Counted from the stretch's first letter, positions 31,358 through 48,316 are shown. The stretch: DNA of 64,000 nt from Bacteriovoracia bacterium (GCA_050246755.1 JBFWVL010000005.1:64001-128000), one strand, 5' to 3'. Notes: generated by a model not told the origin, from the sequence alone. Translations and numbers: made by a program.

Positions 31358-32623
31358 ATGAACAAACTCGAACCCAAAAAACGCTCGAACCACGTGATCC
31401 TCGCCTCGCATTCGAACTTCCGCTACAAAACTTCTTTGCCCATCAAATGGGGCGCCCGAGATCCCCTGGAGCGCGGGCCGGTGGTAGCTTCGCTCACCGA
31501 TCCAAAGGCCCGCAACGCGATCGGCACCCACAGCGGGAGTTATACGGTATACCGCGCGCTTTCGATCGCCAGCGGGAAGTTCGCGTCCACGCATAAACCC
31601 GATTTGCACAATACCCAGAGCCCCGTGAAGCTCGGCCCTTATCCGCAATGGTTCGATCCCAAGAAAATCGTTTCGCTGGATCCCTGGGGCCTCGATCCGC
31701 AGATCCATTTCAAAAAGCTCTACGAGAAGGGCCTCGATATCCGCCCCTCGATTTCGGTAACCCAGGCGCATCTGCAGATTCCCGAATTGGAAGACGCGAT
31801 CGCGAAGGGGCGGCTGAAGAAAGACGGAAAAATCATTCGCGAGAGCGGGGATATCTGCGTAACCAAAGTGGCGCTCGATCCCGTTTGGTACCTTCCGGGG
31901 ATCGCCGAACGGCTCAAGGTTACCGAAGGGGAGCTACGCCGTTTGCTGTTCCAGGAAACGGGCGGGATGTATTCCGATCTGATCACGCGGCCCGACCTTA
32001 AAGTTTGGCTGCCTCCGATCGGCTCTTCCACCGCGTATATTTTTGGCAACCCGCAGAACCTCGCCGACACGAAAGTGGAGCTTACCTGCCGCGTGCACGA
32101 CGAATGCAACGGCTCCGACGTATTCGGCTCCGATATCTGCACTTGCCGCCCCTACCTCATGTACGGCATCGAGGATGCCGCCCGCACCGCGCAGCGCGGG
32201 GGCGTGGGCATCATCGTTTACTACCGCAAAGAGGGCCGCGCCCTCGGAGAAGTGACGAAGTTTCTCGTGTACAATGCGCGTAAGCGCCAAGAGGGCGGGG
32301 ACACCGCCGCAACCTACTTCCGCCGCACCGAATGCGTGGCCGGTGTGGAGGACGCGCGCTTCCAGGAATTCATGCCCGACGTATTGCACTTCTTCGGGAT
32401 CAAGAAAATCCATAACCTCCACTCGATGAGTAACATGAAATACGACGCCATCGTGGGCGGCGGCATCAAAGTGGTGAACCGCATCTCGATTCCCGATAAT
32501 CTGATCCCCCAGGATGCCCAGGTGGAAATGGAAGCCAAGAAGGCGGCCGGCTATTTTACAAAAGAGAAAAGAAAATCGAAAGAAGAGCTGAAGAAGGTGA
32601 AGGGGCGCAAAATTGAAGAATGA
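31358..32623 (+). CDS. URC1-like GTP cyclohydrolase II family protein (N-terminal extension)
   Basis: IKWGA...RGPVVAS, RNAIGTHSGSY, PVWYLPGIA, RVHDECNGSDVFGSDICTCRPYL, RKEGRALGEVTK. Confidence 0.92.
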   Translation: MNKLEPKKRSNHVILASHSNFRYKTSLPIKWGARDPLERGPVVASLTDPKARNAIGTHSGSYTVYRALSIASGKFASTHKPDLHNTQSPVKLGPYPQWFDPKKIVSLDPWGLDPQIHFKKLYEKGLDIRPSISVTQAHLQIPELEDAIAKGRLKKDGKIIRESGDICVTKVALDPVWYLPGIAERLKVTEGELRRLLFQETGGMYSDLITRPDLKVWLPPIGSSTAYIFGNPQNLADTKVELTCRVHDECNGSDVFGSDICTCRPYLMYGIEDAARTAQRGGVGIIVYYRKEGRALGEVTKFLVYNARKRQEGGDTAATYFRRTECVAGVEDARFQEFMPDVLHFFGIKKIHNLHSMSNMKYDAIVGGGIKVVNRISIPDNLIPQDAQVEMEAKKAAGYFTKEKRKSKEELKKVKGRKIEE

Positions 32624-33830
32624 GCTGAGCCTTTCCCCGTCCGAAATTGATTTTATCCTTTCGCCCGCCGCGATTCGCGAGCGCGCGCAAAAACTATTTG
32701 CCCGCACCGAAGCGGCCCAGGGTGCTTTTGCGTATCACCCCGAAAAGCTTGCGTCCACCGTGAGCTACGTACTCGAAGTGATCCGAAAGAATTACCCTTC
32801 ACTGGAAATTCCCTTTCATTCCCGCTGGGGGCATTTCCGCGCCGGCGGCGTGGATCGCACCAAGCTTCTCAACGATAAGCTTGCTCCGCTCAAGCCTCTC
32901 GAGCGTGCCCGTGTGAAGATCGATCTCGTGATTCCCTCGGTACTTCTCGATGCTGGCGCCGGGCCGAGATGGAAATTTCGTGACCAAGACGACAAGTACT
33001 ACGGGCGTTCCGAAGGCCTTGGGCTCGCGAGTTTCTATATGTTTCTGGACGGCGCGATGAGCGCCACCGGCCGGGCGCTTCGCGCGGAAAAAGACGGGCT
33101 CAAGAACATCACCGCCGTTCAGCTCGAGAGAAGCTTCCAGGTAGACGAGCATAATCCGCTCGTGGGCGTGGAAGGCCGCGTGCAGTTGCTCAATAATCTC
33201 GCGCGCGCGCTTGAGAACAAGGAGATTTTCGCCAAGGGCCGCCCCGGCGACCTCGTGGATTATCTCCAAGGGAAATATGGGCAAGAAATTCCGGCCACTG
33301 GTTTGCTCCGCGCCGTGCTCGATGGGCTGGGGCCGATCTGGCCGGGAAGAATCGTGGCGAACGGCACCAACCTCGGCGACGTTTGGCGCCACTCCGCCCT
33401 CGGCGAGGGAATCGAGGCCCTCGTTCCTTTCCATAAGCTTTCGCAGTGGATGACCTATTCCCTCATTGAGCCCATAGAAGAGGCGGGCCTGAAAGTTACC
33501 GGCGTGGAAAATCTCACCGGCCTCGCCGAGTATCGCAATGGCGGGTTATTCATCGATTCGGGCTTGATCTCCTTCCGGAATCCCGGCGATGCCGAGAAAA
33601 CCTGGGCTCCCGATTCCGACCTCATCATCGAGTGGCGCGCCCTCACCGTGCACTTCCTCGATATCGTGGGCGCCGAAGTGCAAAAGGCCCTCGGAAAAAC
33701 TCCCCAGAACTTTCCTCTGGCGAAAGTGCTCGAGGGCGGAACTTGGTGGGCCGGGCGCTTCCTCGCGCAGAAGAACCGCGAGAGCGGCGAGCCCCCGATT
33801 AAAATTAAGAGCGACGGTACCGTTTTTTAG
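32613..33830 (+). CDS. URC4/urg3 family protein (DUF1688)
   Basis: IPFHSRWGHF, SVLLDAGAG, RSEGLGLAS, FHKLSQWMTYSL, LTGLAEYRNGGL, LEGGTW, SDGTVF. Confidence 0.93.
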   Translation: MKNELSLSPSEIDFILSPAAIRERAQKLFARTEAAQGAFAYHPEKLASTVSYVLEVIRKNYPSLEIPFHSRWGHFRAGGVDRTKLLNDKLAPLKPLERARVKIDLVIPSVLLDAGAGPRWKFRDQDDKYYGRSEGLGLASFYMFLDGAMSATGRALRAEKDGLKNITAVQLERSFQVDEHNPLVGVEGRVQLLNNLARALENKEIFAKGRPGDLVDYLQGKYGQEIPATGLLRAVLDGLGPIWPGRIVANGTNLGDVWRHSALGEGIEALVPFHKLSQWMTYSLIEPIEEAGLKVTGVENLTGLAEYRNGGLFIDSGLISFRNPGDAEKTWAPDSDLIIEWRALTVHFLDIVGAEVQKALGKTPQNFPLAKVLEGGTWWAGRFLAQKNRESGEPPIKIKSDGTVF

Positions 33831-33839
33831 GAAATAAAC

Positions 33840-34472
33840 ATGAAGAAAAATCTCATCCTCCTCGATCACCCTCTCCTTAAGCATAAGCTCGGCTACTTGC
33901 GCGATAAGAATACCCGCTCCGCCGAGTTCCGCGAGCTCGTGAAAGAAATCAGCCGTAGCCTGGCCTACGAGGCCATGAGCGATTGGACGGACATGGCCTC
34001 CGTTTCCATCGAGACACCGATCGCCCGCACCAAGGTGGACCGCATCCAGAATCCTCCCGTGGTGGTCTCGATCATGCGCGCCGGAAACGGGATGCTCGAT
34101 CCCGTGCTCTCGATGATCCCCTTCGCCTCGGCGGGCTTCATCGGGATTTACCGCGATAAGTTCATCAACAATACGGTGGAATACTATTTCAAGATGCCTG
34201 CCGACATCGCGGGGCGCCTCGCGATCCTCTGCGATCCCCTGGTTTCCACCGCCGATACCATGATCGCCGCCATCGATCGCCTGAAGAGCTACGAGGTGAA
34301 GAATATCAAGGTTCTATCGATCCTGATCTCGAGCTTCGCGGTGGAGAAAATCCACCATTTCCATCCCGACGTGCAGATCTTCGCTCTCGGCGTGGAAAAA
34401 GAAATCAACGAGCTCGGCTACCTCGTTCCCGGCCTAGGAGATGCGGGTGACCGGCTCTACCAAACCAAGTAA
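33840..34472 (+). CDS. upp: Uracil phosphoribosyltransferase
   Basis: HKLGYLRDKNT, IMRAGNGM, GFIGIYRD, DPLVST, YLVPGLGDAGDRL. Confidence 0.95.
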   Translation: MKKNLILLDHPLLKHKLGYLRDKNTRSAEFRELVKEISRSLAYEAMSDWTDMASVSIETPIARTKVDRIQNPPVVVSIMRAGNGMLDPVLSMIPFASAGFIGIYRDKFINNTVEYYFKMPADIAGRLAILCDPLVSTADTMIAAIDRLKSYEVKNIKVLSILISSFAVEKIHHFHPDVQIFALGVEKEINELGYLVPGLGDAGDRLYQTK

Positions 34473-35079
34473 GCCTTTTTTGCTAGGCGTGGCCGGCGGC
34501 AGCGGGTCGGGGAAAACCTTTTTCGCGCGCGCTTTGCGCGAACGGCTCGGCCCTCACGCCTGCGAAATTATTTATCAGGATAATTTTTATTTCGATCAAT
34601 CGAAACGTTTTGATTTCGACGGCGGCTCCGTGAACTTCGACCACCCTGACGCCATCGACTTCGCGCGCCTAGCTTTGAGCCTGCGCACTTTGAAGTCCGG
34701 CCAGGCTACCGAAATTCCCATCTACGATTTCAAGACGCATAGCCGCTCTCCGTCCACTTTACGCGTGGAGCCCCTGCGCGTGATCGTCACCGATGGTATC
34801 CTTATTTTTCACTCTTCCGAAGTGCGCGCGCTCTTCGACGAGCTAGTCTTTTTCGATACTCCCGAGGAACTGCGCTTTATGCGCCGTCTGGAGCGCGATG
34901 TGGCCGAGCGCGGGCGCACGCCCGAGGGCGTGAAGAATCAGTTTTATAAACAGGTGAAGCCCATGCATGATCAATTCGTGGCGCCCTCGAAGGAGTTCGC
35001 GCACCACGTGGTGATGGACATCGGAGGCTGCGATCAGGCGCTGGAGAGTTACTGTGAGAGACTCCGCGGCGGTGCCTGA
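34441..35079 (+). CDS. udk: Uridine kinase
   Basis: GVAGGSGSGKT, NFDHPDA, PIYDF, RRLERDVAERGR, VKPMHDQFVAPSK. Confidence 0.95.
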   Translation: MRVTGSTKPSKPFLLGVAGGSGSGKTFFARALRERLGPHACEIIYQDNFYFDQSKRFDFDGGSVNFDHPDAIDFARLALSLRTLKSGQATEIPIYDFKTHSRSPSTLRVEPLRVIVTDGILIFHSSEVRALFDELVFFDTPEELRFMRRLERDVAERGRTPEGVKNQFYKQVKPMHDQFVAPSKEFAHHVVMDIGGCDQALESYCERLRGGA

Positions 35080-35864
35080 AACCAGCCCGCCATCGAGCGC
35101 GCCTGGCAAGGCGCGTATTCGAATTTCGCCTTGAAGTCCCACTTCGCGAGATCAACGCGTGCCTCAACGGCATCCTCGTTCTTCATCCCGTGCAGGAAAT
35201 CCAATCGCGCAAATGCCTCGAGCTGATCCACGGGCATCGCGTAGCTCGCGGAAAGCTGATCGGCATCGGTCGGGATCAGGAGCGCCATCGCCTGGCCGGT
35301 TTGCGTGGCGAGCACTTTGTAAAAATATTTGGGTACGGCCACGTTGCCGCCGCCGATGGAATCGAGCCCGCCTTGCAGCACGGGGCCGGTGGTCACCCAT
35401 AGCCCGCCCGTTCGCATCGCCCACGCGCGCACGAGGCTTTCGAGACGGCTCCAGAGCCCGCGGTTAAATTTTGGCGGCTGCGGGCTGATATTCGAGAGCA
35501 GGAAGGATTCGTTCATCGCGTCGTCCGACCATTTATTGTCGCCCGCGGGGCTGAGATGCCCGCGGTCGAGGCCGGAGCCTTTATAGTCGCTGAGTTGCGC
35601 CGACTGTCCGCGCGGTACTTGGGGGTCGGGGCGGAAATTGCTCGGGCGATCGTAGCAATCCTGCAGTTGATCGGGGCCGAGGGAGTAAAATACCCAGTCG
35701 GATTGTTTATAGCTGGGATTGTAGGAGAGGGTAAGCGCGGTCTTTTTCAGCGCGAAGCTCCCCTCCGGAACGATCGGGGTGGGAGAACCAGCGGCGGCGT
35801 TGCCGGCGGCCAGCAAGAGAGCTAGCGCAAACGTCCGCGATATCCGTAACCATCCTTGGTGCAT
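35049..35864 (-). CDS. Secreted DNA/RNA non-specific endonuclease (NucA/EndoG type)
   Basis: Signal peptide; YKGSGLDRGHLSPA, SFLLSNISPQ, FNRGLW, VPKYFYKV. Confidence 0.95.
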   Translation of the reverse strand: MHQGWLRISRTFALALLLAAGNAAAGSPTPIVPEGSFALKKTALTLSYNPSYKQSDWVFYSLGPDQLQDCYDRPSNFRPDPQVPRGQSAQLSDYKGSGLDRGHLSPAGDNKWSDDAMNESFLLSNISPQPPKFNRGLWSRLESLVRAWAMRTGGLWVTTGPVLQGGLDSIGGGNVAVPKYFYKVLATQTGQAMALLIPTDADQLSASYAMPVDQLEAFARLDFLHGMKNEDAVEARVDLAKWDFKAKFEYAPCQARSMAGWFQAPPRSLSQ

Positions 35865-35928
35865 CGGAACCTCTTGTCACCAGTGTAGCAAGGCGAAGCC
35901 AGAAAGATAGGTTAGGATTTAGTTATAG

Positions 35929-36289
35929 TTAAAAATAGTGGTTAATCTGCGGCACCGCGTGCTGCGCGCCCAGGCCCACTTGCTGGGCTTCCTTGCCTTT
36001 GCCGTTAGCAAGGCCGATGCAGTGGTCGAAGAATAGTAGTCGTGGAAGGATTTCTCGTCGAGCGAGCCGTTTTTTACGGCTTTCGCGGCCGCGAAGGAGA
36101 GGCCGAATTCACAGGCGTCTTTCCATGGGCGGGCGAAGGTGGCTACGTCGAGTGTATTCTTCGCGCCTTCGCCGTTCACAAAGTCTTACGATTGCCGCAG
36201 TATTTGTCGACGATCTAGTCGTAGGCCGGAATGGCCAAGGCATTCTGACGAAAAAGCAACACGGCAGCCGGTAAGGAGAGAGTTCTCAT
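35929..36289 (-). pseudogene. Degraded gene for a small secreted protein
   Basis: RBS+ATG, signal-like MRTLSLPAAVLLFRQNALA, in-frame TAG at codon 25, then two apparent frameshifts joining ...DFVNGEGAKNTLD... and ...FFDHCIGLANGKG...NHYF*. Confidence 0.45.
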
Positions 36290-36384
36290 TCCTTCCTGAT
36301 CGTAGCTAAGTTGCTTGCTCTTGAGCTAGGTCAAAATACTTACACGGAAGCGCTAAGGTTTGGAAATCTTGCATGAACTTACAT

Positions 36385-36411
36385 TAAGCCGAGCCGGTTC
36401 TCTGCCGAAGA
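36385..36411 (+). promoter_or_regulatory. FliA (sigma28)-like promoter
   Basis: TAAG-N15-GCCGAAGA directly upstream of ATG 36419. Confidence 0.45.
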
Positions 36412-36418
36412 GTAGCCA

Positions 36419-37558
36419 ATGATTCAGCGCTTATTCATTCTCACTTCATTGCTGGTGGCGCTCGCCATCTCGCTCGGCGTGGCCCAGGCGGCTCCCGCGA
36501 GGTATCCCATCAAGGTGAAAGTGAGTGTTTCGGGGGCCGAGAGCACCACGGTGTATATCATTCCGCCCGAAAAAAAATATTCTCTCTCGGTTAATAATTC
36601 CGAACAGAAGCGCACGAAGATTGCCCTGTACGATAAAGACGGAAATAAAAAAGAAGGGCTCTACTGGATCGCTAACGCGGACCTTGAAAAAGTAATGCGG
36701 AAACCGATCGCCGACGTATTGACTACGCTCCAAAATCGTCCAACGGCCGCTCCCTGCGCCAACTGTGGAGTCGACGATGCGCAGAATCGTCCTGAGCCCA
36801 CCGCGGAACCCGCCAACGCTCCGGCGCCCGCTTCGGTTTCATCTTCCGCGAATCCCCTTTGCAATCGTTTCCACGAATTCGTGAAAAAAGGCGTGCCCGA
36901 AGCTCCGCTGAAACAAGCCTTGCTTTACTATAGCCGTTTTAAGAAAAAATTCGCGGGCAACGATCGCTATATCAGCATAGCGGATTATTCCCAGCGTTCG
37001 AACAAAAAGCGTTTTTATATGCTCGACCTGAAAACCGGGGAGCTGATGAACGAAAAAGTTTCTCACGGCAGCGGCATGTCGCGCGGGCGTATCGTAAGCG
37101 ATCCTAATAACGACGGCATGGTGGACCGCTGTGAACATCCCGACCGGGTGCTCGCCGCCAAAAGAAATCCTCGCCGCGCCTATAAGACCCGCGAAAATAT
37201 GACGAGACCGGGTTTTTTTGCCACCGGATCCCTGAACCTTTCCGTGGCCCATGCCCGCAAATGGCCGCGCGTAACGAGTCGTACCAATAGTCTTTTACTA
37301 AACGGCCTTTCGGGAAAGATCAACGGCTCCGCCCGCCAAGACGGGGTGTTCATGCACGAAACCTACTATAATTTCGACGGCCCGGGCCTCATGGGAAAAA
37401 CCTTCGGCTGCCCGGGATTCGTGCAGAGAAAAGGTACGCCGATCTTCAAGAAGATCGTGGGCGGGAGTCTCTATTATTCCTACGTACCCGTCTGCAAAGA
37501 CGATATGGACTACGTGCTCCAGGACATCAAGGACTGGGACAAATTCTGCGAAGAATAG
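36419..37558 (+). CDS. Murein L,D-transpeptidase catalytic domain family protein (YkuD_2)
   Basis: Signal peptide; IADYSQRSNKKRFYMLDL, VSHGSG, LNGL...N..AR..GVFMH, GKTFGCP. Confidence 0.85.
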   Translation: MIQRLFILTSLLVALAISLGVAQAAPARYPIKVKVSVSGAESTTVYIIPPEKKYSLSVNNSEQKRTKIALYDKDGNKKEGLYWIANADLEKVMRKPIADVLTTLQNRPTAAPCANCGVDDAQNRPEPTAEPANAPAPASVSSSANPLCNRFHEFVKKGVPEAPLKQALLYYSRFKKKFAGNDRYISIADYSQRSNKKRFYMLDLKTGELMNEKVSHGSGMSRGRIVSDPNNDGMVDRCEHPDRVLAAKRNPRRAYKTRENMTRPGFFATGSLNLSVAHARKWPRVTSRTNSLLLNGLSGKINGSARQDGVFMHETYYNFDGPGLMGKTFGCPGFVQRKGTPIFKKIVGGSLYYSYVPVCKDDMDYVLQDIKDWDKFCEE

Positions 37559-37584
37559 CTTTGCGCTGCCAACTTGATAAATAA

Positions 37585-38466
37585 TTATTCGCCCGAAGCG
37601 AAGAGACGTGGATATTTTCCGCCGGTGATTTTATTCAGGCGGGATTTAATCCCTAGATCCAGCCTGGTTTGTGCGCTGATTAAGTCGCGGTTCTGAATTT
37701 CCATATTGCGGCCATAGCATTCGATCATGGCCGTCTGAAACTTAGAGAAGGGATCCCACTGGGTTTCGAACGTACGTACGATCTGGATCATCCAGAGTGG
37801 GATCTTGCGTTCGCACTTCAGCTCCAGAATAGCATAGCGGCTCTGGTACTGGTCCTCAAAGGTTTCGTTATGGTCGTAGTGGCTCATCCGGCTTTCGTCG
37901 GGTTTTACGTTGTAGGTATTTTCTTCCATGTAACGGAGGTCGCGATCAATGGTCACGCGTGCGTACTCGTCGTGGCGGGAAAGCCAGGCGCGGCGGCGGT
38001 ATTGGCTGAGCACTTGGGGCTGAAGGCCGAAGGTTTCGTGCTTCTCCAAAAAATCGCGCATATTCTTGTCCGCGTAGGGATCGAAATCCTTAATGGCCGA
38101 AGGATTTTCGAAAAGATCCGAGATATTTTCGAGGGGAAATTTCGAGCGGCGTTTTTTACAGAAGTTTTCGATTTTCTGTTTGCTCTCGAGGTAATAAGGA
38201 GGCTTGGGATCAGCCCCATAAGAGCGGATGCGGAAGCTGGAATAGGCGAACTCGATCCCGAGCGGGCGCCGCATCATGATGCGGTTCATGCTGTCGAGGT
38301 AGAGGCTATTGATAATGTAGAAACCGCCGGGCGAGATTTGGGAATAGTAATCCATCTCGCAGTATTGGTTCACGTAGTCGGTGATCGGCTCGATCAGCGA
38401 AATCGGAATGCGGTACTTTAGCTCGTAGCGATCCAGGTTCAGGGGTGATACGGCTTTAGCGGTCAT
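37585..38466 (-). CDS. VTC-domain (polyphosphate polymerase-like, CYTH/TTM) protein
   Basis: RYELKY, INSLYLD, FRIRSY, LESKQK, YRRRAW, RVTIDRDL, ILELK, FSKF. Confidence 0.9.
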   Translation of the reverse strand: MTAKAVSPLNLDRYELKYRIPISLIEPITDYVNQYCEMDYYSQISPGGFYIINSLYLDSMNRIMMRRPLGIEFAYSSFRIRSYGADPKPPYYLESKQKIENFCKKRRSKFPLENISDLFENPSAIKDFDPYADKNMRDFLEKHETFGLQPQVLSQYRRRAWLSRHDEYARVTIDRDLRYMEENTYNVKPDESRMSHYDHNETFEDQYQSRYAILELKCERKIPLWMIQIVRTFETQWDPFSKFQTAMIECYGRNMEIQNRDLISAQTRLDLGIKSRLNKITGGKYPRLFASGE

Positions 38467-39803
38467 GCGCCTATCCTCCGGTTCGTTTTCGAGAGGTGGT
38501 TCAGGTCAGCGTCTTCGGCCAAGCGGCCCGTTTCGTAGAGAAATTCGATATAGAGCGTGCGGATCTCGCCCAGAAGCTTGATCCGGTAGAGGCGCTTGGA
38601 AATGCTGGCGCGTTGGAGCTCCATCGCGAGCGCGGGATCGTTGCGGAGCAAGCTGTCGGTGATATTGGCTTTGCCTTCGCTGGAATTCAGGTAGGCGGCC
38701 ACTTTTTCTTTCACGATTTCGCGCAGGGCGGCCGCATGCTCCCCGGCTTCGTCGGATTCCACCTGGGCCTCCACTTCGAGGCGCGCCACTTTAATGCGGT
38801 CACGCTGTTCGTCTAGGTCGCCGGCCGCGAGGAAAGGCAGGTTGAACGTGATGCCGAGGCTATAGGAGGTTCCGCGGCGCGTTTCGTTGGGAAACTGGTT
38901 AGAGTCCGGAATGGTGGCGCCGTCGAATTGGTACTGGTCGTAGCGGTGGCTTTTAATGGAATCCACTCCTTTGCCAACGGAAAATTTGATTCCGTCGATC
39001 CATTTGGAATTTTTCTCCAGGCCGTACTTATGTCGCGCGCGCTCCACCGTGAGGTCGTTCAGCACGTCTTCGCTGGTTAAGCTGGAGATGTCGGTCATGC
39101 CTTTGAGGCGCTCGCCGATATCCTGGGCCGATACCACTTGGTCGATCTCGAGTTCGTTCAGCGTTAGGCCGCGGCGGGAGAGGCTATGATTCACGCCCGC
39201 GATGATGCTGGAGATTTCCGCCATTTCATTTTTGGCTTTATCGATTTCCCCGGCGGCTTTCAGCACGGCTTTCGCGTCGCCCTCCGAGCGGGCGGTGATT
39301 CCGCTGAGGCGCTGTGAGCGATCGAGCACGAGATTCCATTCGTTGAGCAGGGCCTGCTCTTCACGGGCCTGTGCGGCCCGGGCCAAAAGCTCGTGGGCGG
39401 CCTTGGCGCTTTTCGACTGCAGGATTTTTCGCTCGAGCGCGGTACGCGATTTGAGGGTCTTCTCGTATTTATAATAAGAGATGGCCTCGAATATTCCCTT
39501 GGGCTTCAGCTCGAGGGACAGCTTATTAGCATACTCGCTCTCATCGCGGTCGCGAATGCGGGTCTTGATACGGTCGGTCGGGGTGTTTCCGTACACGAGC
39601 GTTTCCGAGCGGCCGAGGGAATCGCCCCAGGAATGCTCGAATCCTAGCTTGATTTCCGATACCGGATTCAAAAATTGCCGAGAGGTGGCCTCCTCTAGTT
39701 CAGGCACGCGCGCGGCCGATTTCTGGAGCAGTAGCTCCGGAGTATAGGCCGCCGCGTTCTGAGCGGCGAGTAGCGCGGTTACGGTGAGGGCAAGGCGAAG
39801 CAC
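38463..39803 (-). CDS. TolC-like outer membrane efflux protein (divergent)
   Basis: Signal peptide; two repeats of beta-strand pair plus long helices; SLGITFNLPF strand-to-helix motif; follows a HlyD gene. Confidence 0.6.
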   Translation of the reverse strand: MLRLALTVTALLAAQNAAAYTPELLLQKSAARVPELEEATSRQFLNPVSEIKLGFEHSWGDSLGRSETLVYGNTPTDRIKTRIRDRDESEYANKLSLELKPKGIFEAISYYKYEKTLKSRTALERKILQSKSAKAAHELLARAAQAREEQALLNEWNLVLDRSQRLSGITARSEGDAKAVLKAAGEIDKAKNEMAEISSIIAGVNHSLSRRGLTLNELEIDQVVSAQDIGERLKGMTDISSLTSEDVLNDLTVERARHKYGLEKNSKWIDGIKFSVGKGVDSIKSHRYDQYQFDGATIPDSNQFPNETRRGTSYSLGITFNLPFLAAGDLDEQRDRIKVARLEVEAQVESDEAGEHAAALREIVKEKVAAYLNSSEGKANITDSLLRNDPALAMELQRASISKRLYRIKLLGEIRTLYIEFLYETGRLAEDADLNHLSKTNRRIGA

Positions 39804-39815
39804 AGGATTCTCCTA

Positions 39816-41594
39816 CTAACGGCCCGAACGTGGTCCGGTGATCGTAGTGATTTTTGAACCACGCGATCCCAGGTCGAAGGTGATCAAGAACAGATTTTTC
39901 TCGGCGTTATAAGCCACGCCTTCCGGGCTGTCGGCCTTGAACTTGCGGATCAGCTTGGGCTTAAGCTCGTTCTCACTGAGGCTCCAGAAGCCGCCGCAAG
40001 ACTCGCTTTTGCAGGAAGTGGTAAAGTACGCGGTATTGCCCACGAACGTGAGGTCCGTCATGCGGTAGGTGGAGCCGTCGTTCTCGTCGAACTTCACGGT
40101 TTTCCAAACTTCGAGCTCGGTATTTTCACCCTTGGCGGTGAACAAGGCATCCACGCTCGGCACGCGCAGGATGAGGGAAGCGTTATCGGCGGTCTGCGGG
40201 GCCTTGAGGCCGATATAGAGCGCGCCGTCGCGGATATCGTGGGCTTCCACCTCGAATTTGTCCATGCCGTCTTCGGCCATGGCCTGCAGCAGCGGATGTT
40301 CAGAATTTTTGATGAGCTTGCGAACCAGCTTGCCGAGGTTTACTTCCTGGGTGTCGGAGAGAACCACGCCCTTGCGTTTCATGCGCACAAAGAGGTTGCG
40401 GGCTTTTTTGATATCGCTTTCCTTCTTCGCGGTGAGGGAGGTCATCACGTAGAGGTAATCGCCCGCCACGCTCACCGATTCCATGTCGTTGATTTCTTTC
40501 ACGCCGGGAATGCGCAGGGTTTGCTCGTCCACTTCTCCGTCCTGCGACATCAGGAAGAGCCAAGGCGCGTTCGATTCGTCGGTATCGTCCGATACCACGA
40601 GGTATTTCTTGAGGTCGGGCAGATACACCGCGCCGGAAGCCTCGAAGCTGGATTTGTCGGAGAGCGAGGGGGGTAGCTTCACTTGCACGGGCGCCTGGCC
40701 TTCGGCCTTAGCGGCGGCGTCTTCGTCGTCGGCTCTGGCCACGAGGGCAGGCAGCAGGGAAACCACGGGGGAAATCTGCACTTTTTCGCCGAGGATAATA
40801 TTGCTCTCTTTAGGAATTTCAATCATCACTTCGCGGCCCCAGATGGGCACGCCGTTGCGGCCGCCGGAAGTGGGCGCTAAGCGGAGGGGAAGCTCCACGA
40901 ATCGGGCGCCCACGCTGACCACCTTGCCGTCTACCGAGCTGCCGTTATTAGTGAGCGAGCTGATGCGCACGTGGCTGCCGGGATGCACGCTGGTTTGCAG
41001 CGCTTCGTTCACAAAGCCTTGCACGAAGGTGGGGCTATCGGGGGAAATGGTCACGAGCGAAGAGAAAGCGGGCGCGCGTTCGCCGCGCTTGAAGTTCACG
41101 CTGCCCACGATGCCGTCGATTTCGGCGAACACGTAGAGGTTATTGCGCTGGCGTTCCAGGAAGCCGCGCTCTTCTTCGAGCTCGCGGAGCTCTACCGATA
41201 AAGGATCTTCTCCCACGGCGAGGCTAGTATTGCCCACGGCCTTGTTCATCTGTTCGCGCACCGAGCGCTCGGCGCGGAGCTTTTGCACTTGGGCGGTGAG
41301 CTGACGGATCTGGGTATTGAGCTCGGTCTGATTGAGCTCAATCAGGAGGTCGCCTTTTTGTACGCGTTGCCCTTGGATCACGTGCACACGCTTGATTTCC
41401 ACTGGGTACTCGAAGTTAACGTTGGATTCGCGCGAGCCGGCCACGCCGTGGAAGCTGAGATCGGGGGAGTTCAGGTAGAAACCCATGCCCACGATCACCA
41501 CCACCGCCGCGAGGATGCACCAGGCGTGGAAGGTATTTTCGGAACCGATGATTTCGTCTTTGATAAAAGTAAGGGGATTGAATCTTTTTTTCAT
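39816..41594 (-). CDS. HlyD-family periplasmic adaptor fused to an acidic beta-propeller domain
   Basis: TM anchor, lipoyl halves (VHVIQGQRVQKGDLLIEL; FAEIDGIVGSV), coiled coil; C-terminal FEASG, VSDD, DMES, PEGVAY blades (DUF3616/SdiA-regulated-like). Confidence 0.85.
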   Translation of the reverse strand: MKKRFNPLTFIKDEIIGSENTFHAWCILAAVVVIVGMGFYLNSPDLSFHGVAGSRESNVNFEYPVEIKRVHVIQGQRVQKGDLLIELNQTELNTQIRQLTAQVQKLRAERSVREQMNKAVGNTSLAVGEDPLSVELRELEEERGFLERQRNNLYVFAEIDGIVGSVNFKRGERAPAFSSLVTISPDSPTFVQGFVNEALQTSVHPGSHVRISSLTNNGSSVDGKVVSVGARFVELPLRLAPTSGGRNGVPIWGREVMIEIPKESNIILGEKVQISPVVSLLPALVARADDEDAAAKAEGQAPVQVKLPPSLSDKSSFEASGAVYLPDLKKYLVVSDDTDESNAPWLFLMSQDGEVDEQTLRIPGVKEINDMESVSVAGDYLYVMTSLTAKKESDIKKARNLFVRMKRKGVVLSDTQEVNLGKLVRKLIKNSEHPLLQAMAEDGMDKFEVEAHDIRDGALYIGLKAPQTADNASLILRVPSVDALFTAKGENTELEVWKTVKFDENDGSTYRMTDLTFVGNTAYFTTSCKSESCGGFWSLSENELKPKLIRKFKADSPEGVAYNAEKNLFLITFDLGSRGSKITTITGPRSGR

Positions 41595-41595
41595 A

Positions 41596-42279
41596 CTAAA
41601 TCTCCACCACCGCTTCTTGCATCATGAGGTTCACGCTTTTGGCGCCCTCGATGTTTTTCACTTCGCGCACGAATGCTTCGCGCCCGGCGTCTTTCTTAAA
41701 TTTCACGTGGTAAGCGAAATCGATGATATTGCCCTGGCCCATCTCTCGCAGGGAGACGAGGTTATAGTTTTTGCAGTGGGTATTGAGCACTTGCTCGAGC
41801 TCACGCTGCTGCTTCTCGGTGGCGGTAAGATTCAGGCGGAGGAGGGCATCGTACTGTGGACCGTGCGCGAAGGGAGTTTTCGCGAGAATCACCACCGCAA
41901 TGCCGAAGCAGATCGCGCCCATGGCGGCTACCGAGTAGTTGTGCACTCCGCAAGCGAGGCCCACCGAGAGGGCGGCGAAGATAAAGAGCATATCGCGGGG
42001 GTCTTTGATGTCGGTGCGGAAGCGCAGGAGCGAGATCGTGCCCACCATGCCGATACCGCGGGCCACGTTGTCGCCGATGGCTTGCATGGCTACGGCCGTG
42101 AGGATGGGACAGAGCACGAGGCAGTGAAGGAAGTTACGCGAATAGGAAAGGCCACGGAAAGTTTTGATATAGAGAATCGTGATCCCGCTGCCCAATACGA
42201 AAGACAATAAGAAGGCGTAGAACACCGTGAAAAGCGTTGGGTTCGCAACGGCGGACGAGAGGGATTGAATATCAAGCAT
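41596..42279 (-). CDS. DUF4956 domain membrane protein
   Basis: YSRNF, IGDNVARGIGMVGTISLLRFRT, KDPRDMLFIF, GLACG, C-terminal ACT-like domain. Confidence 0.92.
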   Translation of the reverse strand: MLDIQSLSSAVANPTLFTVFYAFLLSFVLGSGITILYIKTFRGLSYSRNFLHCLVLCPILTAVAMQAIGDNVARGIGMVGTISLLRFRTDIKDPRDMLFIFAALSVGLACGVHNYSVAAMGAICFGIAVVILAKTPFAHGPQYDALLRLNLTATEKQQRELEQVLNTHCKNYNLVSLREMGQGNIIDFAYHVKFKKDAGREAFVREVKNIEGAKSVNLMMQEAVVEI

Positions 42280-42322
42280 GCGGACTGGCCTCGAGCTACA
42301 AAGTTTGCTGCGGTGCAATATA

Positions 42323-42340
42323 TTAGGAAATTGTTAGGAA
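42323..42340 (-). promoter_or_regulatory. 11-bp-period direct repeat (possible OmpR/PhoB-family site)
   Basis: TTAGGAA at 42323 and 42334, about 45 nt upstream of the DUF4956 start. Confidence 0.4.
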
Positions 42341-42394
42341 GTAAAGTTAAATAGTCGGAAATTATGCTCTAGTCGATTATAGAAGCGTTAGACC

Positions 42395-42537
42395 TGGCCT
42401 AGTTGATTGTTGATGGACACCGCTAACCAATTGTAGTTATTGAATAATTTCTAAAATAGTTTCTGATTTATACCAGTTGAAGCTAAGTTTGCGAAACAGC
42501 GCGCGAATGGCCGTAAAAACAACAATTAAGTAGACCA
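42395..42537. mobile_element. 143-bp MITE-like element, copy 1
   Basis: Imperfect 18-bp TIR TGGCCTAGTTGATTGTTG / CAACAATTAAGTAGACCA; aligns without gaps to the reverse complement of 48318-48460 (107/143 identical by manual count). Confidence 0.7.
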
Positions 42538-42580
42538 GCTAGTGACAAATACCTTAGCAAAATGATAATGCATTGCATCA

Positions 42581-43942
42581 ATGCGTGTAAGTTTTCAATA
42601 TTCCGCTCTTTTCTTGATTGCCAGCCTAGTCACCGGTTGCGCGGGCGGTTTGCAATTGGACGGCAAAACTTCGCCGCGCTCGAATCGAACCGTGGTGCTT
42701 TTCCTGGTGGACGGACTGGGCGCCAAGCTCCTTCAGAGCGGAATTTCTTCGGGACTCATGCCCAATACGCGTCGTTTTTTTCTGAAAAATAAAACGGCCT
42801 TCGCGCAAGGGCAGGCCGCCTTTCCCTCGCTCACGTACCCCAATCTTTCGGGAGTTCTCACCTCGAAGGCGGTGGGCGATCAGCCCGTAACCTCCAATAA
42901 GGTGGCCGTGAACGGAAAAGTGGTGAATTATGAATCTCCTTTCCACCACGATGATCTCGAGCGGGCGGTCCGGCCCCAGAGTATTTTCACGCGTCTCGCG
43001 AGCCAGGGAAAAACCAGCGCCAGCTTTTCCTTCGTGCTCGGAGAGGATGCCACCGACCATATGGCCGTGGGCCTGCGCGAAGGCCTTGAATACCAAAGCC
43101 ATGAGTACCGCGAGCTCGACGAGCGGCTGCTCACGAATCTTGAAGAATATCTGGCCGACAAGGAAAACCCCGCCACCTGGCCTTCCTTCATCTACGTGCA
43201 TCTCGTGGGAGTAGATGGAACAGCCCACCATTTCGGCGTGCGCTCCCGGCAAACCCGCGAATACCTGGCTTGGCTCGATCGGCGGTTGGCGCCGGTTTTT
43301 AAAATCCTCGTCGCGGCCGAAAAACGCAAACAAGTAACCAGTATCCTCACGGCTGATCACGGCTTCGTGGACACGGAACGCTTCGTGGATTTGGAAAAAT
43401 TCGTCCGTAAGACCGATAAGACCCTGCTCGTGACCAACGAGAGCCGTTTCTTGGGCCTCTACCGCAAGCCCGGAGCTCGGCCCGAAGCCCTCGAAGAGCT
43501 GCTTGTCCATATTCGCTCCGTGCCCGGCGTGGAGCTCACCGTTTTGCGAAAAGAAAATCGTCTTGAATTCTCCACGGCGCGCCAAACCTTAGCCTTCGGG
43601 TATGGCCCGGCCTTATGCGAGTCCGCTAGTTTTTCGCTCGCTCCTGCAAATGAGAGCGCGAGCCTCGCCTCCGGCACGTTTCGCTGCCCGGATGAGCTCA
43701 ATCCCGTGATCCAGCCCTATCCCTTTCTCGTGAGCGGTCTCTCGCGCTACCTGAATGCCCCTAATCATCCCGACGCGGTGGTGATCGCCAAGCCCGATAC
43801 CTCGTTCACCAAAGACCATAAGGGCAACCATGGCGGCCCCACTGCCGACGAAATGCTCGTTCCCATCCTTTTGCGTAACGCGGCCATCGCCGGAGCGTTT
43901 CCTCACACTAGTGACTTGCTGAAAACCCTCGATAAGCTTTAA
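42581..43942 (+). CDS. Alkaline phosphatase superfamily lipoprotein (nucleotide pyrophosphatase/phosphodiesterase-like)
   Basis: Lipobox VTGC; FLVDGLG, FPSLTYPN, DGTAHHFG, TADHG, GNHGG, EMLVP. Confidence 0.9.
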   Translation: MRVSFQYSALFLIASLVTGCAGGLQLDGKTSPRSNRTVVLFLVDGLGAKLLQSGISSGLMPNTRRFFLKNKTAFAQGQAAFPSLTYPNLSGVLTSKAVGDQPVTSNKVAVNGKVVNYESPFHHDDLERAVRPQSIFTRLASQGKTSASFSFVLGEDATDHMAVGLREGLEYQSHEYRELDERLLTNLEEYLADKENPATWPSFIYVHLVGVDGTAHHFGVRSRQTREYLAWLDRRLAPVFKILVAAEKRKQVTSILTADHGFVDTERFVDLEKFVRKTDKTLLVTNESRFLGLYRKPGARPEALEELLVHIRSVPGVELTVLRKENRLEFSTARQTLAFGYGPALCESASFSLAPANESASLASGTFRCPDELNPVIQPYPFLVSGLSRYLNAPNHPDAVVIAKPDTSFTKDHKGNHGGPTADEMLVPILLRNAAIAGAFPHTSDLLKTLDKL

Positions 43943-43954
43943 TCTCCGCTTTCT

Positions 43955-45784
43955 ATGTCGGAAAACCTCCTCCAGCTCCAATCGGCCGCCAAATCCTACG
44001 GCTCTCGCTTTCTCTTCGAGAACGCCACTTTTTCCGTGAACAGCGGGGAGCATATCGGCGTGATCGGCCCCAACGGGGCGGGCAAAACCACGATGTTCAA
44101 GATCCTGGCTCAGCAGGAAGAGATGGACCACGGCCAGCTCATCCGCTCCAAAAAACTTTCCCTGGGCTATCTCTCGCAGCACGATAAGTGGGAGCCGGAA
44201 GAAACCGGCAATTCCTTCCTCGAGCGCGTAACGCAGATCCCGATCTGGGAACTAAAAGCCCGCGGCCGCGAGCTGCAGGTAACGGAAGAACTGCTCGACC
44301 GGCAAATCGTCTCGCTCAGCGGCGGCTACCGCATGCGCATCAAGCTGATGGGCCTGCTCGGTTCCGCGCCTAACCTCATGCTGCTCGACGAGCCCACCAA
44401 CTATTTGGATCTCGAAACCACGCTTCTGCTCGAGCGCTTCCTGCAAGGCTACGAAGGTGCATTCCTCTTAATCTCCCACGACCGCGAATTCCTCCGCCGC
44501 ACCACCGATCATATCCTCGAGGTAGAGGGCGGCGATATGACCAAGTACAATGGGAATATCGACGACTACTTCGAGCAGAAAGAATTGTTGCGTACCCAGC
44601 TCGAAGCGAGCGCTGCCGGCCAAGCCAAGAAAAAAGAAGCCATCATGGACTTCGTGAACCGCTTCGGCGCGAAAGCCACGAAGGCCAAGCAGGCGCAATC
44701 TCGGTTAAAAAGTTTGGCGAAAATGGAAACGATCGAGATCAAGCCCCTGCCGAACGCCACCGTGATCAATATTCCCCCGCCCGCGAAAACCGGCAAAGCC
44801 ATTCTCTCGGTGGAAAACGCGCGTTTCGGCTACGGCGAAAAAACGATTCTCTCCGACGTGACCCTCACCGTAATGAAGGGCGATCACGTGGCGGTGGTGG
44901 GGCTGAACGGCGCTGGGAAATCCACGCTGCTCAAAGGCATCTCCGGAACCCTGTCTCCGCTCACCGGTAAGTTCGAGTTCGGCCTCGACGTGAAAATCGC
45001 TTTCTTCGCCCAGCACGTGATCGAGGCCCTCGACGCGGAAGACACCGTCTACCGCTCCCTCGAGAAAGCCGCCCACAAAGACGTGAAGCCCCAGGAGATC
45101 CTGAACCTCGCGGGCTCCCTATTATTTTCCGGCGACGACGTGAAGAAACCCGTTTCGGTGCTTTCGGGCGGCGAAAAATCCCGCGTGGCCCTCGGGCGCG
45201 TGCTTTTGCAAAAAGCTCCCTGTCTCGTACTCGATGAGCCCACCAACCATTTGGATTTCCAAACCGTGGAAGCGCTCACGAATGCGCTGCGCGCGTATGA
45301 GGGCACGGTAATCGTGGTGAGCCACGACCGTGGTTTCATCCGGCGCGTGGGCACTAAGATCCTCGAAGTGGCCAATGGAAAAGTGCGGCTTTACCCCGGC
45401 ACCTACGAAGAGTACGTATGGAGCGTACAGCAGGGATTGGCGGCGGGTGATAGTCCTGAAGAGAAGCCGGCGAAGAAGAAAACCGTAGTGGTGGAAGCCG
45501 TGGTGGAGCAGGCCAAGCCCACGAACTGGAAAGACCAGAAGAAGCAGCTCGAGAGGGAACTGAAATCCTGCGAGAGAAAATTCCGCGACTGCGAGAAAGA
45601 GCTCACCGATCTGCAAACCGAGAACGAAGAGCTGAATAAAAAACTCATGGAAGCCGTGGACATGACCCTCGTGCGCCGGATGACCGCGAACGGGTCCCGC
45701 ATCGCCGAGCTCGAGGCGCTATGGCTGCAATTAGCCGAAGAGAAAGAGCGCTGGGCTAAGGCCGTGGAAGAGATGAAGGGTTAA
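43955..45784 (+). CDS. ABC-F family ATP-binding protein
   Basis: Two ABC domains (GPNGAGKT, LSGG, DEPTNYLD; GLNGAGKS, LSGGE, DEPTNHLD), linker KAKQAQSR, no TM. Confidence 0.96.
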   Translation: MSENLLQLQSAAKSYGSRFLFENATFSVNSGEHIGVIGPNGAGKTTMFKILAQQEEMDHGQLIRSKKLSLGYLSQHDKWEPEETGNSFLERVTQIPIWELKARGRELQVTEELLDRQIVSLSGGYRMRIKLMGLLGSAPNLMLLDEPTNYLDLETTLLLERFLQGYEGAFLLISHDREFLRRTTDHILEVEGGDMTKYNGNIDDYFEQKELLRTQLEASAAGQAKKKEAIMDFVNRFGAKATKAKQAQSRLKSLAKMETIEIKPLPNATVINIPPPAKTGKAILSVENARFGYGEKTILSDVTLTVMKGDHVAVVGLNGAGKSTLLKGISGTLSPLTGKFEFGLDVKIAFFAQHVIEALDAEDTVYRSLEKAAHKDVKPQEILNLAGSLLFSGDDVKKPVSVLSGGEKSRVALGRVLLQKAPCLVLDEPTNHLDFQTVEALTNALRAYEGTVIVVSHDRGFIRRVGTKILEVANGKVRLYPGTYEEYVWSVQQGLAAGDSPEEKPAKKKTVVVEAVVEQAKPTNWKDQKKQLERELKSCERKFRDCEKELTDLQTENEELNKKLMEAVDMTLVRRMTANGSRIAELEALWLQLAEEKERWAKAVEEMKG

Positions 45785-46531: not shown

Positions 46532-48316
46532 GTGGACAAACGTCTTTTTCAGCTATTGCTGGCGCTCTGGCTTCTCGCCGCGCCCTTTGCCTTCGCCGCG
46601 CGTGACGTGGAAAAGCTTCTGCGCGAAGAAGGTGCCCGCGCAAAAGCAAATGCCGGTCTCTACTACGACGAAATTTTCGATCGAGACGGCCAGCTCCGCC
46701 CTCAATACAAAGATATTTACCCGCGCTTGCTCGAAAAAGAGCCCAGCGAACTGAAGAAAATCCGCGCGCTCACCAAAAAAGATTTCTTGGGTGACAACGC
46801 GCTTTCTCCCGTGGCCCTCATCACCGAAAAATCCGAGCACGATCTGAAGCGCCAAGGCGTGGCGCAGCGGGGGCGCGCCTTGCTGGAATTCCTGAAGGAT
46901 CACTATTCTGGCAAAAAAACCTATAGTGAGGTGATGCACCCCGCCCTCGTAGACCGCATCATCGCCCGCACCGGGGAAACCAGCTACGCGGGCCACATCA
47001 ATCCCGAGAGCATTCGCTTTATGTACGGCCCCGACATCATCCGCGATGCCGATGGGGTATTCCGCGTGCTTGAGGACAATACGAATTTTCTCGGCGGGCA
47101 GGGCGATCTGGTGAAGGCCCGTGAGTCGCTCTGGAAGCGGCTGCCAGAATACGCCACCGCTTTGGACAAAGAGGAAATTGCGCAGCCGATGGATTTTTAT
47201 AAAAGTCTCCTGACGCGCTACCGCCGCGAGATGCCGGATCCGAAAGCGCCGGTGGTTTTTTTCAGCGTTCCGCCTTATCCCGATAACGAAGATGTGCGCC
47301 TCAACAAAATCTGGAAAGAGCTCGGCGTAGAAACGGTTACCCCTTTCACGCGCAATCCTAAGCTGGTGAAGAAGAAAGACGGCCTTTACCTGGAGCGTAA
47401 AGTAGGCGCGAAAGTTCGCGCGGAGAAAATCGGCTACCTAATCCTCAATACCGAGTTCGGCGGCCTCGATCCCGGTTTTGCGCCGTCTCATCATCAGTTT
47501 TTGTTTGAAGCGGCAAAAGAGCATCTCGGCGCCAAAGGCCGGGAAGCGATTTCCAGGAAAAATAGGGAAGCGCTGGAAAAGGCGCTTGTGCCCGATCCCA
47601 GCGGAAACATCGACTATGCGGAAGTGGAGAACGTCTTGCGCAAGAAACTTGGCCTATCTCATTTCACCGAAGGCACGGAACGGGGCCTGGTGGAGGCGAT
47701 CGTGAAAGGCCAGGTGCTCTCGAACAATACTCCCGGGATCGATTTCATCAACGATAAAGAATTCAATATTTACGTGGAAGATCTGATCCGCCACTACCTG
47801 AAAGAAGAGCCCATTCTGCGCAATCTTCCCGCCCGCCGCCTGTATGCCGTGAATAAGGCCGGGGAGCGAGTGGTGGACGAGAAAGTTTTCCGTGACCTCG
47901 AGCGAGATACCGGTAAGTACGTGGTGAAGGTGGTGGATGGGCGCGGGGGAGAGGGCGTGTGGGTGGGGCCGAGGCTGAGCGCCGAGGGGCGGGCCGCGAT
48001 GCTGCAGAAACTGCAAGAGGATACAGGCCGTGAGGTGATTGTGCAGGAATACCGGCACCCCTCGGTGTTGGCGGGAGATATCGTGGATGAACGCGTGCTC
48101 GCGCAAGTGGGTCCCCGCGAGATTGGCGGAAAATTCGTGGAGGTTTCGGAAACGGGATGGTCGCGGGGTGTGAGCATGGCCGGAGACGGAAAAGTGAACC
48201 TCAGTGCCGGCAAGGCCCATGAGGTGACGGTCCTGCAACGGAGGCTAGATGTGAAAACGGGGCTTCCCGTTCGGCCGCGTTCCTGTTCCGAGCTTTACCG
48301 CGAGGCGCTTTATTAG
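46532..48316 (+). CDS. Circularly permuted type-2 ATP-grasp protein with signal peptide
   Basis: GPDIIRDADGVFRVLEDN, NNTPG..NDK, EEPILRN, VVKVVDGRGGEGVWVGP, VQE, VDER, VNLSAG; signal MDKRLFQLLLALWLLAAPFAFA. Confidence 0.85.
   Translation: MDKRLFQLLLALWLLAAPFAFAARDVEKLLREEGARAKANAGLYYDEIFDRDGQLRPQYKDIYPRLLEKEPSELKKIRALTKKDFLGDNALSPVALITEKSEHDLKRQGVAQRGRALLEFLKDHYSGKKTYSEVMHPALVDRIIARTGETSYAGHINPESIRFMYGPDIIRDADGVFRVLEDNTNFLGGQGDLVKARESLWKRLPEYATALDKEEIAQPMDFYKSLLTRYRREMPDPKAPVVFFSVPPYPDNEDVRLNKIWKELGVETVTPFTRNPKLVKKKDGLYLERKVGAKVRAEKIGYLILNTEFGGLDPGFAPSHHQFLFEAAKEHLGAKGREAISRKNREALEKALVPDPSGNIDYAEVENVLRKKLGLSHFTEGTERGLVEAIVKGQVLSNNTPGIDFINDKEFNIYVEDLIRHYLKEEPILRNLPARRLYAVNKAGERVVDEKVFRDLERDTGKYVVKVVDGRGGEGVWVGPRLSAEGRAAMLQKLQEDTGREVIVQEYRHPSVLAGDIVDERVLAQVGPREIGGKFVEVSETGWSRGVSMAGDGKVNLSAGKAHEVTVLQRRLDVKTGLPVRPRSCSELYREALY

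Follow-up and report, generated by a model that had tools for sequence, protein, structure and literature searches.

How might an efflux-type adaptor and an outer-membrane duct be put to use when no pump is encoded beside them? The question is raised by a 4.7-kb cassette of four co-directional minus-strand genes in a 64,000-nucleotide (nt) stretch of DNA from a Bacteriovoracia bacterium (GCA_050246755.1, JBFWVL010000005.1:64001-128000), to which we refer, at its full length, as the window. In cassette order, the genes encode a DUF4956 membrane protein, a HlyD-family adaptor fused to a predicted beta-propeller, a predicted TolC-fold duct, and an enzyme of the VTC family. An initial annotation of the window had proposed that these proteins make polyphosphate, or a related polymer, and push it to the cell surface. 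Bacterial polyphosphate is attributed to cytoplasmic PPK1 and PPK2, and we know of no bacterial polyphosphate exporter that has been described; the route of the polymer to the exterior of the bacterial cell lacks an explanation, and the cassette bears on it. From the computational analysis described here, we give roughly even odds (a probability near 0.5) to the reading in which polyphosphate synthesis and extrusion are coupled, with DUF4956, the adaptor, and the duct as the route out.

The four proteins of the cassette

The product of the last gene, 293 amino acids (aa) long, matches the Pfam VTC family (PF09359) with an E value of 2.8e-35 and 122.4 bits against a cut-off of 23, over positions 2-231 of the 235 in the profile, and VTC is its sole Pfam domain. 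Neither the SPX domain nor the fused C-terminal transmembrane (TM) domain of the eukaryotic subunits was found by Pfam or hydropathy, and the protein, which has no hydrophobic segment, is predicted to be soluble. A profile built from the 21-sequence family matches Vtc4 (3g3q, E 2.1e-20) better than Vtc2 (1.9e-11) and Vtc3 (1.5e-07). According to a cryo-EM preprint, the critical residues of Vtc4 are K200, R264, R266, K281, R361, K458, S457, and Y359, with E426 chelating the metal, and K458 is the sole critical residue replaced in the inactive Vtc2 and Vtc3 (10.1101/2023.01.27.525886). All nine are identical in the window protein in a HMMER alignment: K200, R264, R266, K281, and Y359 of Vtc4 correspond to K17, R79, R81, K96, and Y156, and R361, E426, S457, and K458 correspond to R158, E215, S241, and K242. 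Among the 21 relatives, the K458 equivalent is Lys in 21/21, the Y359 equivalent Tyr in 18/21, and the S457 equivalent Ser in 20/21. The active site thus appears from these residues to be intact and of the polymerase type, which fits a polymerase and is also compatible with a triphosphatase. The genome carries this one VTC gene only, together with PPK1 and PPK2, and therefore does not need VTC for ordinary cytoplasmic polyphosphate.

The 446-aa product of the third gene had been described as TolC-like. It gave no Pfam family at E ≤ 0.01 (the OEP model being unmatched) and no NCBIfam family at E ≤ 0.1, and a phmmer search of this protein and of the 592-aa adaptor against PDB sequences returned nothing relevant. 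It begins with an N-terminal signal-like segment. The family is very small: a word-indexed search yielded 5 proteins and a profile search, run over 1.84 billion, 24 representatives with E ≤ 0.001. An alignment of 25 sequences, from which 124-aa and 80-aa fragments and one 3345-aa protein were dropped, gave an AlphaFold2 model of the monomer with a predicted local distance difference test score (pLDDT) of 87 and a predicted template modeling score (pTM) of 0.75. In the model, a beta-hairpin leads into a helix of 71 residues and then another helix, and this pattern occurs twice; by DSSP, the first repeat comprises E48-70, E80-101, H104-174, and H177-209, and the second E269-289, E307-320, H330-373, and H390-425. 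Foldseek against the PDB returned outer-membrane factors only, down to rank 44 (TolC, ST50, CusC, SilC, OprM, OprN, MtrE, CmeC, VceC, and NodT; best E 5e-11), and the first unrelated match has an E value of 0.055. VIA-align superimposes the model on TolC (1ek9) with Z 20.7 and a root-mean-square deviation (rmsd) of 4.7 Å over 387/428 residues; the first 29 rows are all outer-membrane factors, and the next, an unrelated chain, falls to Z 8.2. In six related loci, a Pfam OEP protein stands at the same operon position as the duct, and hhalign of the 25-sequence family with these six proteins gives a probability of 84% (E 7.6e-6, 319 columns). The TolC likeness proposed for this protein is borne out by the model, and we assign it, on predicted structure, as a highly divergent TolC-fold duct over its full length.

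By hydropathy, the adaptor has one hydrophobic segment, after which come the HlyD domains and a linker rich in Ala and Glu. Residues 55-232 match Pfam HlyD_D23 (40.1 bits, cut-off 30) and HlyD_3 (40.0 bits, cut-off 22.2); the NCBIfam RND_mfp model (TIGR01730) matches with an E value of 1.2e-14 and 54.1 bits, under its cut-off of 94.9. The C-terminal part, residues 300-592, gave no Pfam family at E ≤ 10 save two stray weak matches, with PF06977, PF13449, and PF12275 unmatched; a distant homologue of the propeller (P0058) is annotated with PF13449. An AlphaFold2 model of these last 293 residues from a 22-row alignment is an all-beta propeller with pLDDT 92.9 and pTM 0.92, and the domain is accordingly predicted to fold as a beta-propeller. 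The fusion of a HlyD adaptor to a propeller, as first annotated, is therefore upheld by the Pfam matches above cut-off and by the model. The description of the propeller as acidic was overstated; it is slightly so, with 43 Asp and Glu residues against 38 Lys and Arg.

Foldseek returned generic propeller matches only for this domain. In a VIA comparison with 48,161 chains, the top match is the C-terminal domain of Escherichia coli YjiK (3qqz, Z 19.8, rmsd 3.1 Å, 218/243 residues), followed by bacterial glutaminyl cyclases (Z 18.2 for 3mbr, and 17.1), the human Ca-activated nucleotidase SCAN (2h2n, Z 17.8), and GH130 and GH43 enzymes (Z 14-16). We take the best structural matches to be five-bladed propellers. 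Because other propellers score so close to the top match (Z 18.2 and 17.8), we assign the fold but not the family. The domain resembles in fold the propellers of YjiK (SdiA-regulated), DUF3616, Phytase-like proteins, and SCAN, but it differs from them in having no Pfam match to their families and in being fused to an efflux-type adaptor. Its feature neighbours in an Atlas search are DUF3616/Phytase-like clusters (score 0.93), which we treat as a lead only. Eight acidic residues do not vary among the 22 propeller sequences (E19, D37, D38, D71, E73, D215, E259, and D275, numbered within the domain) and may form a metal site. Conservation is higher in the propeller, whose nearest non-identical relatives share 80% identity, than in the duct, for which the figure is 61%.

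The first gene product matches Pfam DUF4956 (PF16316) with an E value of 1.9e-15 and 57.5 bits against a cut-off of 30.6, and in an Atlas search its neighbours are all DUF4956 clusters with no structure. Its resemblance to MgtC is weak and sub-threshold (PF02308, 18.5 bits vs 31.4; NF007431, 15.5 vs 214). Translation most likely starts at the ATG at 42279 rather than at the TTG at 42318, because the 27 aligned relatives are mostly 217-228 aa long, a GAGG lies 9 nt upstream of the ATG, and a promoter-like sequence (42345-42317) runs into the TTG. Hydropathy indicates about 4-5 hydrophobic helices and then a soluble C-terminal part of ∼85 residues. R86, R88, D93, and D96 are invariant in the 27 sequences, as are several glycines; the third hydrophobic stretch is followed by these four residues in an R-F-R...D..D motif, which the positive-inside rule would place at the cytoplasmic face. 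Prediction of a complex between DUF4956 (27 rows) and VTC (21 rows) gave 0.00 in both runs, which is not evidence either way.

The genes are tightly packed. The open reading frame (ORF) table reproduces the spacing first reported, with a 1-nt gap between DUF4956 and the adaptor, a 12-nt gap between the adaptor and the duct, and a 4-nt overlap (ATGA) between the duct and VTC, and the junction sequences carry GGAG-type ribosome sites ahead of every downstream start. Promoter-like sites, which are consensus matches only, number five in 37300-42700 against 2.7 ± 1.6 in shuffles. Coordinates are collected in Table 1.

Table 1. Positions of the cassette genes, their parts, and the adjoining features, counted from the first letter of the window
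Feature	Position	Strand	Remarks
VTC protein	37585-38466	(-)	293-aa ORF
TolC-fold protein	38463-39803	(-)	446-aa ORF, GTG start
HlyD adaptor and propeller	39816-41594	(-)	592-aa ORF
Adaptor, N-terminal part	40899..41594	(-)	short cytoplasmic tail, TM helix 20-44, HlyD domain 55-232
Adaptor, C-terminal propeller	39816..40697	(-)	residues 300-592 and stop codon, periplasmic
DUF4956 protein	41596-42318	(-)	240-aa ORF as called; 41596..42279 (227 aa) more likely
Divergent intergenic region	42280..42580		AT-rich; promoter-like sites for the cassette and the phosphodiesterase gene
Phosphodiesterase-family lipoprotein	42581-43942	(+)	453-aa ORF, divergent from the cassette
ABC-F ATPase	43955-45784	(+)	12-nt gap after the phosphodiesterase gene; two ABC domains and ABC_tran_Xtn

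Recurrence of the gene set and its neighbours in other genomes

Within the window's class, 61 genomes were searched. The duct protein is present in four of them (the window's own, G000, and G002, G005, and G007) and the VTC family in 10. In G005 and G002, the order DUF4956, adaptor-propeller, duct, VTC is the same and the flanks differ. In G007, adaptor-propeller, duct, and VTC lie on a contig that begins within the adaptor gene and therefore does not cover the position of DUF4956; in G004, the cassette is present but a duct gene is missing.

Searching the genomes of 185,579 species with the propeller alignment, through a single peptide pattern that yields a lower bound, returned at least 30 loci in Bdellovibrionota, Myxococcota, Desulfobacterota/Thermodesulfobacteriota, Acidobacteriota, Rokubacteria, Eisenbacteria, and unclassified bins; L016 among them repeats the G005 contig. 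With components called by hidden Markov models (HMMs) from our own alignments, DUF4956 is present in 28/30 loci, HlyD in 25/30 (fused to the propeller in 20 and as a separate gene adjoining it in 5), and VTC in 25/30, and these three occur together in 22/30. A duct gene is present in 15-16/30, 10 by our own HMM (that in L036 being weak and on the opposite strand) and 6 by Pfam OEP, and the outer-membrane duct appears from these counts to be optional across the family. Some of the gaps lie at the edges of the data: three of the loci that lack VTC stop at the edge of a contig (L015, L024, and L043), L036 is a 3-kb fragment, and L037 is a propeller alone.

DUF4956 lies immediately upstream of HlyD in 25/30 loci. 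By ORF coordinates, the two are ≤27 nt apart in 22, 480 nt apart in one, and in two the upstream call overlaps. The only locus where they are not adjacent has a 112-aa "23S rRNA-intervening sequence protein" ORF between DUF4956 and the adaptor (L027:2867-3205, plus strand). Gene order varies between lineages: VTC comes last in Bdellovibrionota but heads the set in many Myxococcota. Chance adjacency of the four genes can be ruled out by this conserved synteny, since the set is found again, between other flanking genes, in further genomes and phyla.

A few loci depart from the pattern in their gene structure. In Desulfamplus, VTC is split into two ORFs of 101 and 164 aa (L039:12463-13283); DUF4956 is in two ORFs at L040:8208-8861, and the adaptor ORFs overlap at L020:8854-10894. 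Frameshifts, pseudogenes, or errors of assembly may account for these cases. In two Rokubacteria and Eisenbacteria loci (L029:1459-2304 and L030:1190-1948), a second propeller, with Pfam SdiA-regulated/Phytase-like matches, lies between DUF4956 and the query-type propeller, and the propellers are followed by a FlgD_ig-domain protein in L029 and by a 398-aa ORF without a Pfam match in L030.

The initial annotation had stressed that no conventional pump accompanies the cassette, and this holds for the window, where Pfam and NCBIfam find none in the operon. The sole nearby ABC protein (Table 1) matches NCBIfam ribo_prot_ABC_F with 429.8 bits against a cut-off of 380 and is of the ribosome-associated type; because it belongs to the ABC-F family, which lacks a membrane domain, it is not a transporter and is ruled out as the missing pump. 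The neighbours in related loci were scanned with Pfam over ORFs ≥110 aa within 4.5 kb, chosen greedily, so that small or miscalled genes may be missed. In 33 related loci, no ABC, RND, or MacB component was found beside the cassette among batches of 23 proteins at E ≤ 1e-3, 133 at E ≤ 1e-5, and 56 at E ≤ 1e-4. Nearby transporters are limited to L011, where one MFS gene converges on the cassette, and L018, where an amino-acid permease gene and an EamA gene lie upstream of it. The expected co-occurrence of four genes without a pump therefore stands across phyla for DUF4956, HlyD, and VTC, with the TolC-type gene found in only about half of the loci.

Other neighbours recur. PPDK_N-domain proteins are present in nine distinct loci: L009 (identical to L016), L020, L024, L025, L034, L038, L040, L041, and L043. 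CotH kinases are present in four (L018, L027, L032, and L039), lamin-tail-domain proteins in four, and calcineurin-like phosphoesterases in three. The recurrent PPDK_N and CotH neighbours, which the initial annotation does not mention, are absent from the window, and CotH was not found in the window's genome, which is 95.7% complete. A three-gene PPDK_N operon flanks the cassette in G005 (L009) and L043; in the window's genome it lies on another contig, with 47-65% identity. That copy, on contig 1 of G000 (L053:7748-12826, minus strand), encodes a 524-aa PPDK_N protein with 460-aa and 702-aa proteins that have no Pfam family, and it adjoins a beta-lactamase-like gene. In Myxococcota loci, PPDK_N proteins of ∼750 aa lie immediately upstream of VTC. 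Two loci from unclassified bins (L022:5300-7336 and L026:10119-12158) have proteins of ∼680 aa directly after VTC, each bearing three lamin-tail domains plus a Por secretion (type IX secretion system, T9SS) C-terminal sorting domain.

A model of synthesis-driven export and its alternatives

Taken together, the composition of the cassette suggested to us that the four genes may encode one envelope-spanning machine. A cytoplasmic Vtc4-type VTC enzyme would polymerize inorganic polyphosphate from ATP at the inner membrane, and the growing chain would enter the MgtC-like DUF4956 protein, which would take the place of an ABC, RND, or MFS pump. The membrane-anchored HlyD adaptor would link the periplasm to the TolC-fold duct, through which the polymer would exit the cell; in relatives without a duct gene, the polymer might go to the periplasm or leave via a TolC encoded elsewhere. 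The driving force would be polymerization rather than a pump, by analogy with the yeast VTC complex and with the synthase-dependent secretion of polysaccharides. The propeller would sit on the periplasmic side of the inner membrane and might bind the polyanion with divalent cations, gate it, or trim it. Polyphosphate as the product, DUF4956 as the conduit, every contact between the proteins, the direction in which transport runs, and what the propeller does are parts of the model that we infer from gene content and domain families.

The model borrows from several known systems. With the eukaryotic VTC complex (yeast Vtc4/Vtc3/Vtc1; 3g3q, 7ytj, 8i6v), the window shares the catalytic tunnel domain with its nine critical residues and, as proposed, the logic of synthesis at the cytoplasmic face coupled to passage through a membrane partner. 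Unlike the eukaryotic proteins, the window VTC has no SPX or fused TM domain, its partner would be DUF4956 rather than a Vtc1-type three-helix protein, and the cassette adds genes for a periplasmic adaptor, its propeller, and a predicted outer-membrane duct. As in AcrAB-TolC, MacAB-TolC, EmrAB-TolC, and HlyBD-TolC, a membrane-anchored HlyD-family adaptor and a TolC-fold factor are encoded together; in contrast to these tripartite efflux and type I secretion systems, no ABC, RND, or MFS transporter was found in the window operon or in the related operons scanned, the adaptor bears a C-terminal propeller, and the duct is too divergent for Pfam OEP. In the secretion of cellulose, alginate, Pel, and PNAG, polymerization at the inner membrane drives translocation, and a periplasmic scaffold leads to the outer-membrane exit. 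The principle is like that proposed here, but the proteins and the polymer are unrelated, and those systems exit via a porin and a TPR scaffold, whereas the window has a TolC duct and a HlyD adaptor. In a paper on Gram-positive pel loci, cotH, a polyphosphate polymerase, DUF4956, and DUF4832 are accessory genes for which no function is given (PMC7112168). VTC and DUF4956 form a conserved unit there as they do here, and CotH, which belongs to the group, accompanies the cassette in the four related loci noted above; the monoderm group differs in having no adaptor, duct, or propeller, and the window in having no pel genes.

Several observations weigh against export of polyphosphate by this route. 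DUF4956 is small and MgtC-like, and MgtC is known as a regulator, not a channel. Within the class, VTC loci without the cassette are found in G034 (two), G036, G049, and G056 (G060 being left out of this count). A TolC-type gene was undetected in 12 loci whose sequence runs past the cassette. Three loci (L029, L030, and L035) combine VTC and DUF4956 with stand-alone propellers and have no HlyD, and trans-envelope export can therefore not be the whole story. The PPDK_N and CotH neighbours hint at a phosphotransfer function that the model leaves unexplained. Longer forms in which VTC is fused to a membrane domain were not found among 619 candidates of 514-2000 aa at E ≤ 0.001, although this is weak evidence. 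Finally, as judged from sequence, the conserved active-site residues cannot tell a polymerase from a triphosphatase. On the last point, the initial annotation had named a VTC protein that is only a triphosphatase as one of the refuting outcomes; the Vtc4-type site, including the K458 lysine, is kept, but the residues do not exclude that activity.

Part of this evidence would also fit a periplasmic or surface phosphoryl-donor system, in which VTC and DUF4956 would deliver polyphosphate or short phosphoanhydrides to the periplasmic face only, to be used or processed there by the propeller and, in other genomes, by exported CotH or PPDK_N-type kinases, with the adaptor and duct as scaffold or overflow. 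The 12 loci without a detected duct gene, the three without HlyD, and the CotH and PPDK_N neighbours all favor such a system, as do the Ca-dependent nucleotidase among the fold matches of the propeller (Z 17.8) and the joint travel of CotH, VTC, and DUF4956 in monoderm pel loci (PMC7112168). The window, however, has a complete adaptor and duct, its genome yielded no CotH, its PPDK_N operon is on another contig, and the propeller family is not known to have an enzyme activity; we consider this explanation unlikely. The enzyme might instead be a triphosphatase or another tunnel-fold enzyme, with the remaining proteins handling another cargo, such as divalent cations or a phosphorylated small molecule. 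Triphosphatases are indeed numerous among bacterial CYTH/TTM enzymes, members of the MgtC family are linked to Mg homeostasis, and the many invariant acidic residues of the propeller are suited to metal binding. The closeness of the profile to catalytic Vtc4, the retention of the lysine that is lost in the inactive paralogues, and the lack of a Pfam cation-transporter family in the cassette argue the other way and make this possibility quite improbable.

More doubtful still is a reading in which the adaptor and duct make up an ordinary efflux pair for a pump whose gene lies elsewhere, with VTC and DUF4956 as unrelated or regulatory operon-mates. Adaptors usually adjoin their own pump, whereas here DUF4956 precedes HlyD in 25/30 loci, often with overlapping codons, no pump gene was found in the scanned neighbourhoods, and the set stays together while gene order shifts between phyla, with VTC first or last. 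What can be said for a distant pump is that TolC-type ducts are often encoded apart from their pumps, that VTC and DUF4956 are found without HlyD in other contexts, and that the weak, sub-threshold likeness of DUF4956 is to a regulatory membrane protein.

Synthesis-coupled export remains our preferred reading, and the interpretation given in the initial annotation is partly supported, since the TolC fold, the Vtc4-type site, and the pump-free co-occurrence all failed to refute it. In the full-text literature searched (subscription journals lying outside it), we found no description of a VTC, DUF4956, and HlyD system, polyphosphate, Vtc4, and HlyD were not found together, and none of the titles listed dealt with a bacterial exporter; the initial annotation, too, knew of no characterized tripartite system of such composition. 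If the reading is true, eukaryote-style coupled synthesis and translocation exists in bacteria too, a polymer synthase rather than a pump can drive adaptor/TolC assemblies, and DUF4956 and a large propeller family gain a function. By its gene content, the cassette could combine VTC-type coupled synthesis and translocation with an adaptor-TolC assembly in a new secretion route. We hold more tentatively, at rather less than even odds, a broader proposal in which the Vtc4-type polymerase and DUF4956 would be the first known bacterial polyphosphate synthase-translocon, set in a HlyD/TolC assembly where a pump would otherwise stand, so that the energy of polymerization itself would move the polymer out of the cell; the propeller would be a new metal-dependent module for loading, gating, or trimming the chain, and the polymer would feed extracytoplasmic kinase-like enzymes of the CotH and PPDK_N types in other phyla. 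Because the cassette is small and self-contained and its source is a non-pathogenic environmental lineage, the hypothesis is directly testable by heterologous expression.

Genes flanking the cassette in the window

The divergent gene next to DUF4956 matches Pfam Phosphodiest (PF01663) with an E value of 1.9e-27 and 97.2 bits against a cut-off of 23, which places it in the type I phosphodiesterase/nucleotide pyrophosphatase family, and its translation carries an LVTGC lipobox. The alkaline-phosphatase-superfamily lipoprotein described in the initial annotation is thus real, but it is not a conserved partner; its position is held by a beta-lactamase-like gene in G005 and by a hydrolase in G002, and we rejected it as a member of the cassette.

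Beyond the ABC-F gene, 46532-48316 (plus strand) encodes a 594-aa protein with circularly permuted ATP-grasp domains (CP_ATPgrasp_1 and CP_ATPgrasp_2); relatives gave no sign of a link between it and the cassette. On the other side, 32613-37558 holds unrelated neighbours: a DUF1688 protein, a uracil phosphoribosyltransferase, a uridine-kinase-family protein, a non-specific DNA/RNA endonuclease (35049-35864, minus strand), and a YkuD_2 L,D-transpeptidase-like protein (36419-37558, plus strand). YkuD-type genes flank the cassette in L017 and L018 too.

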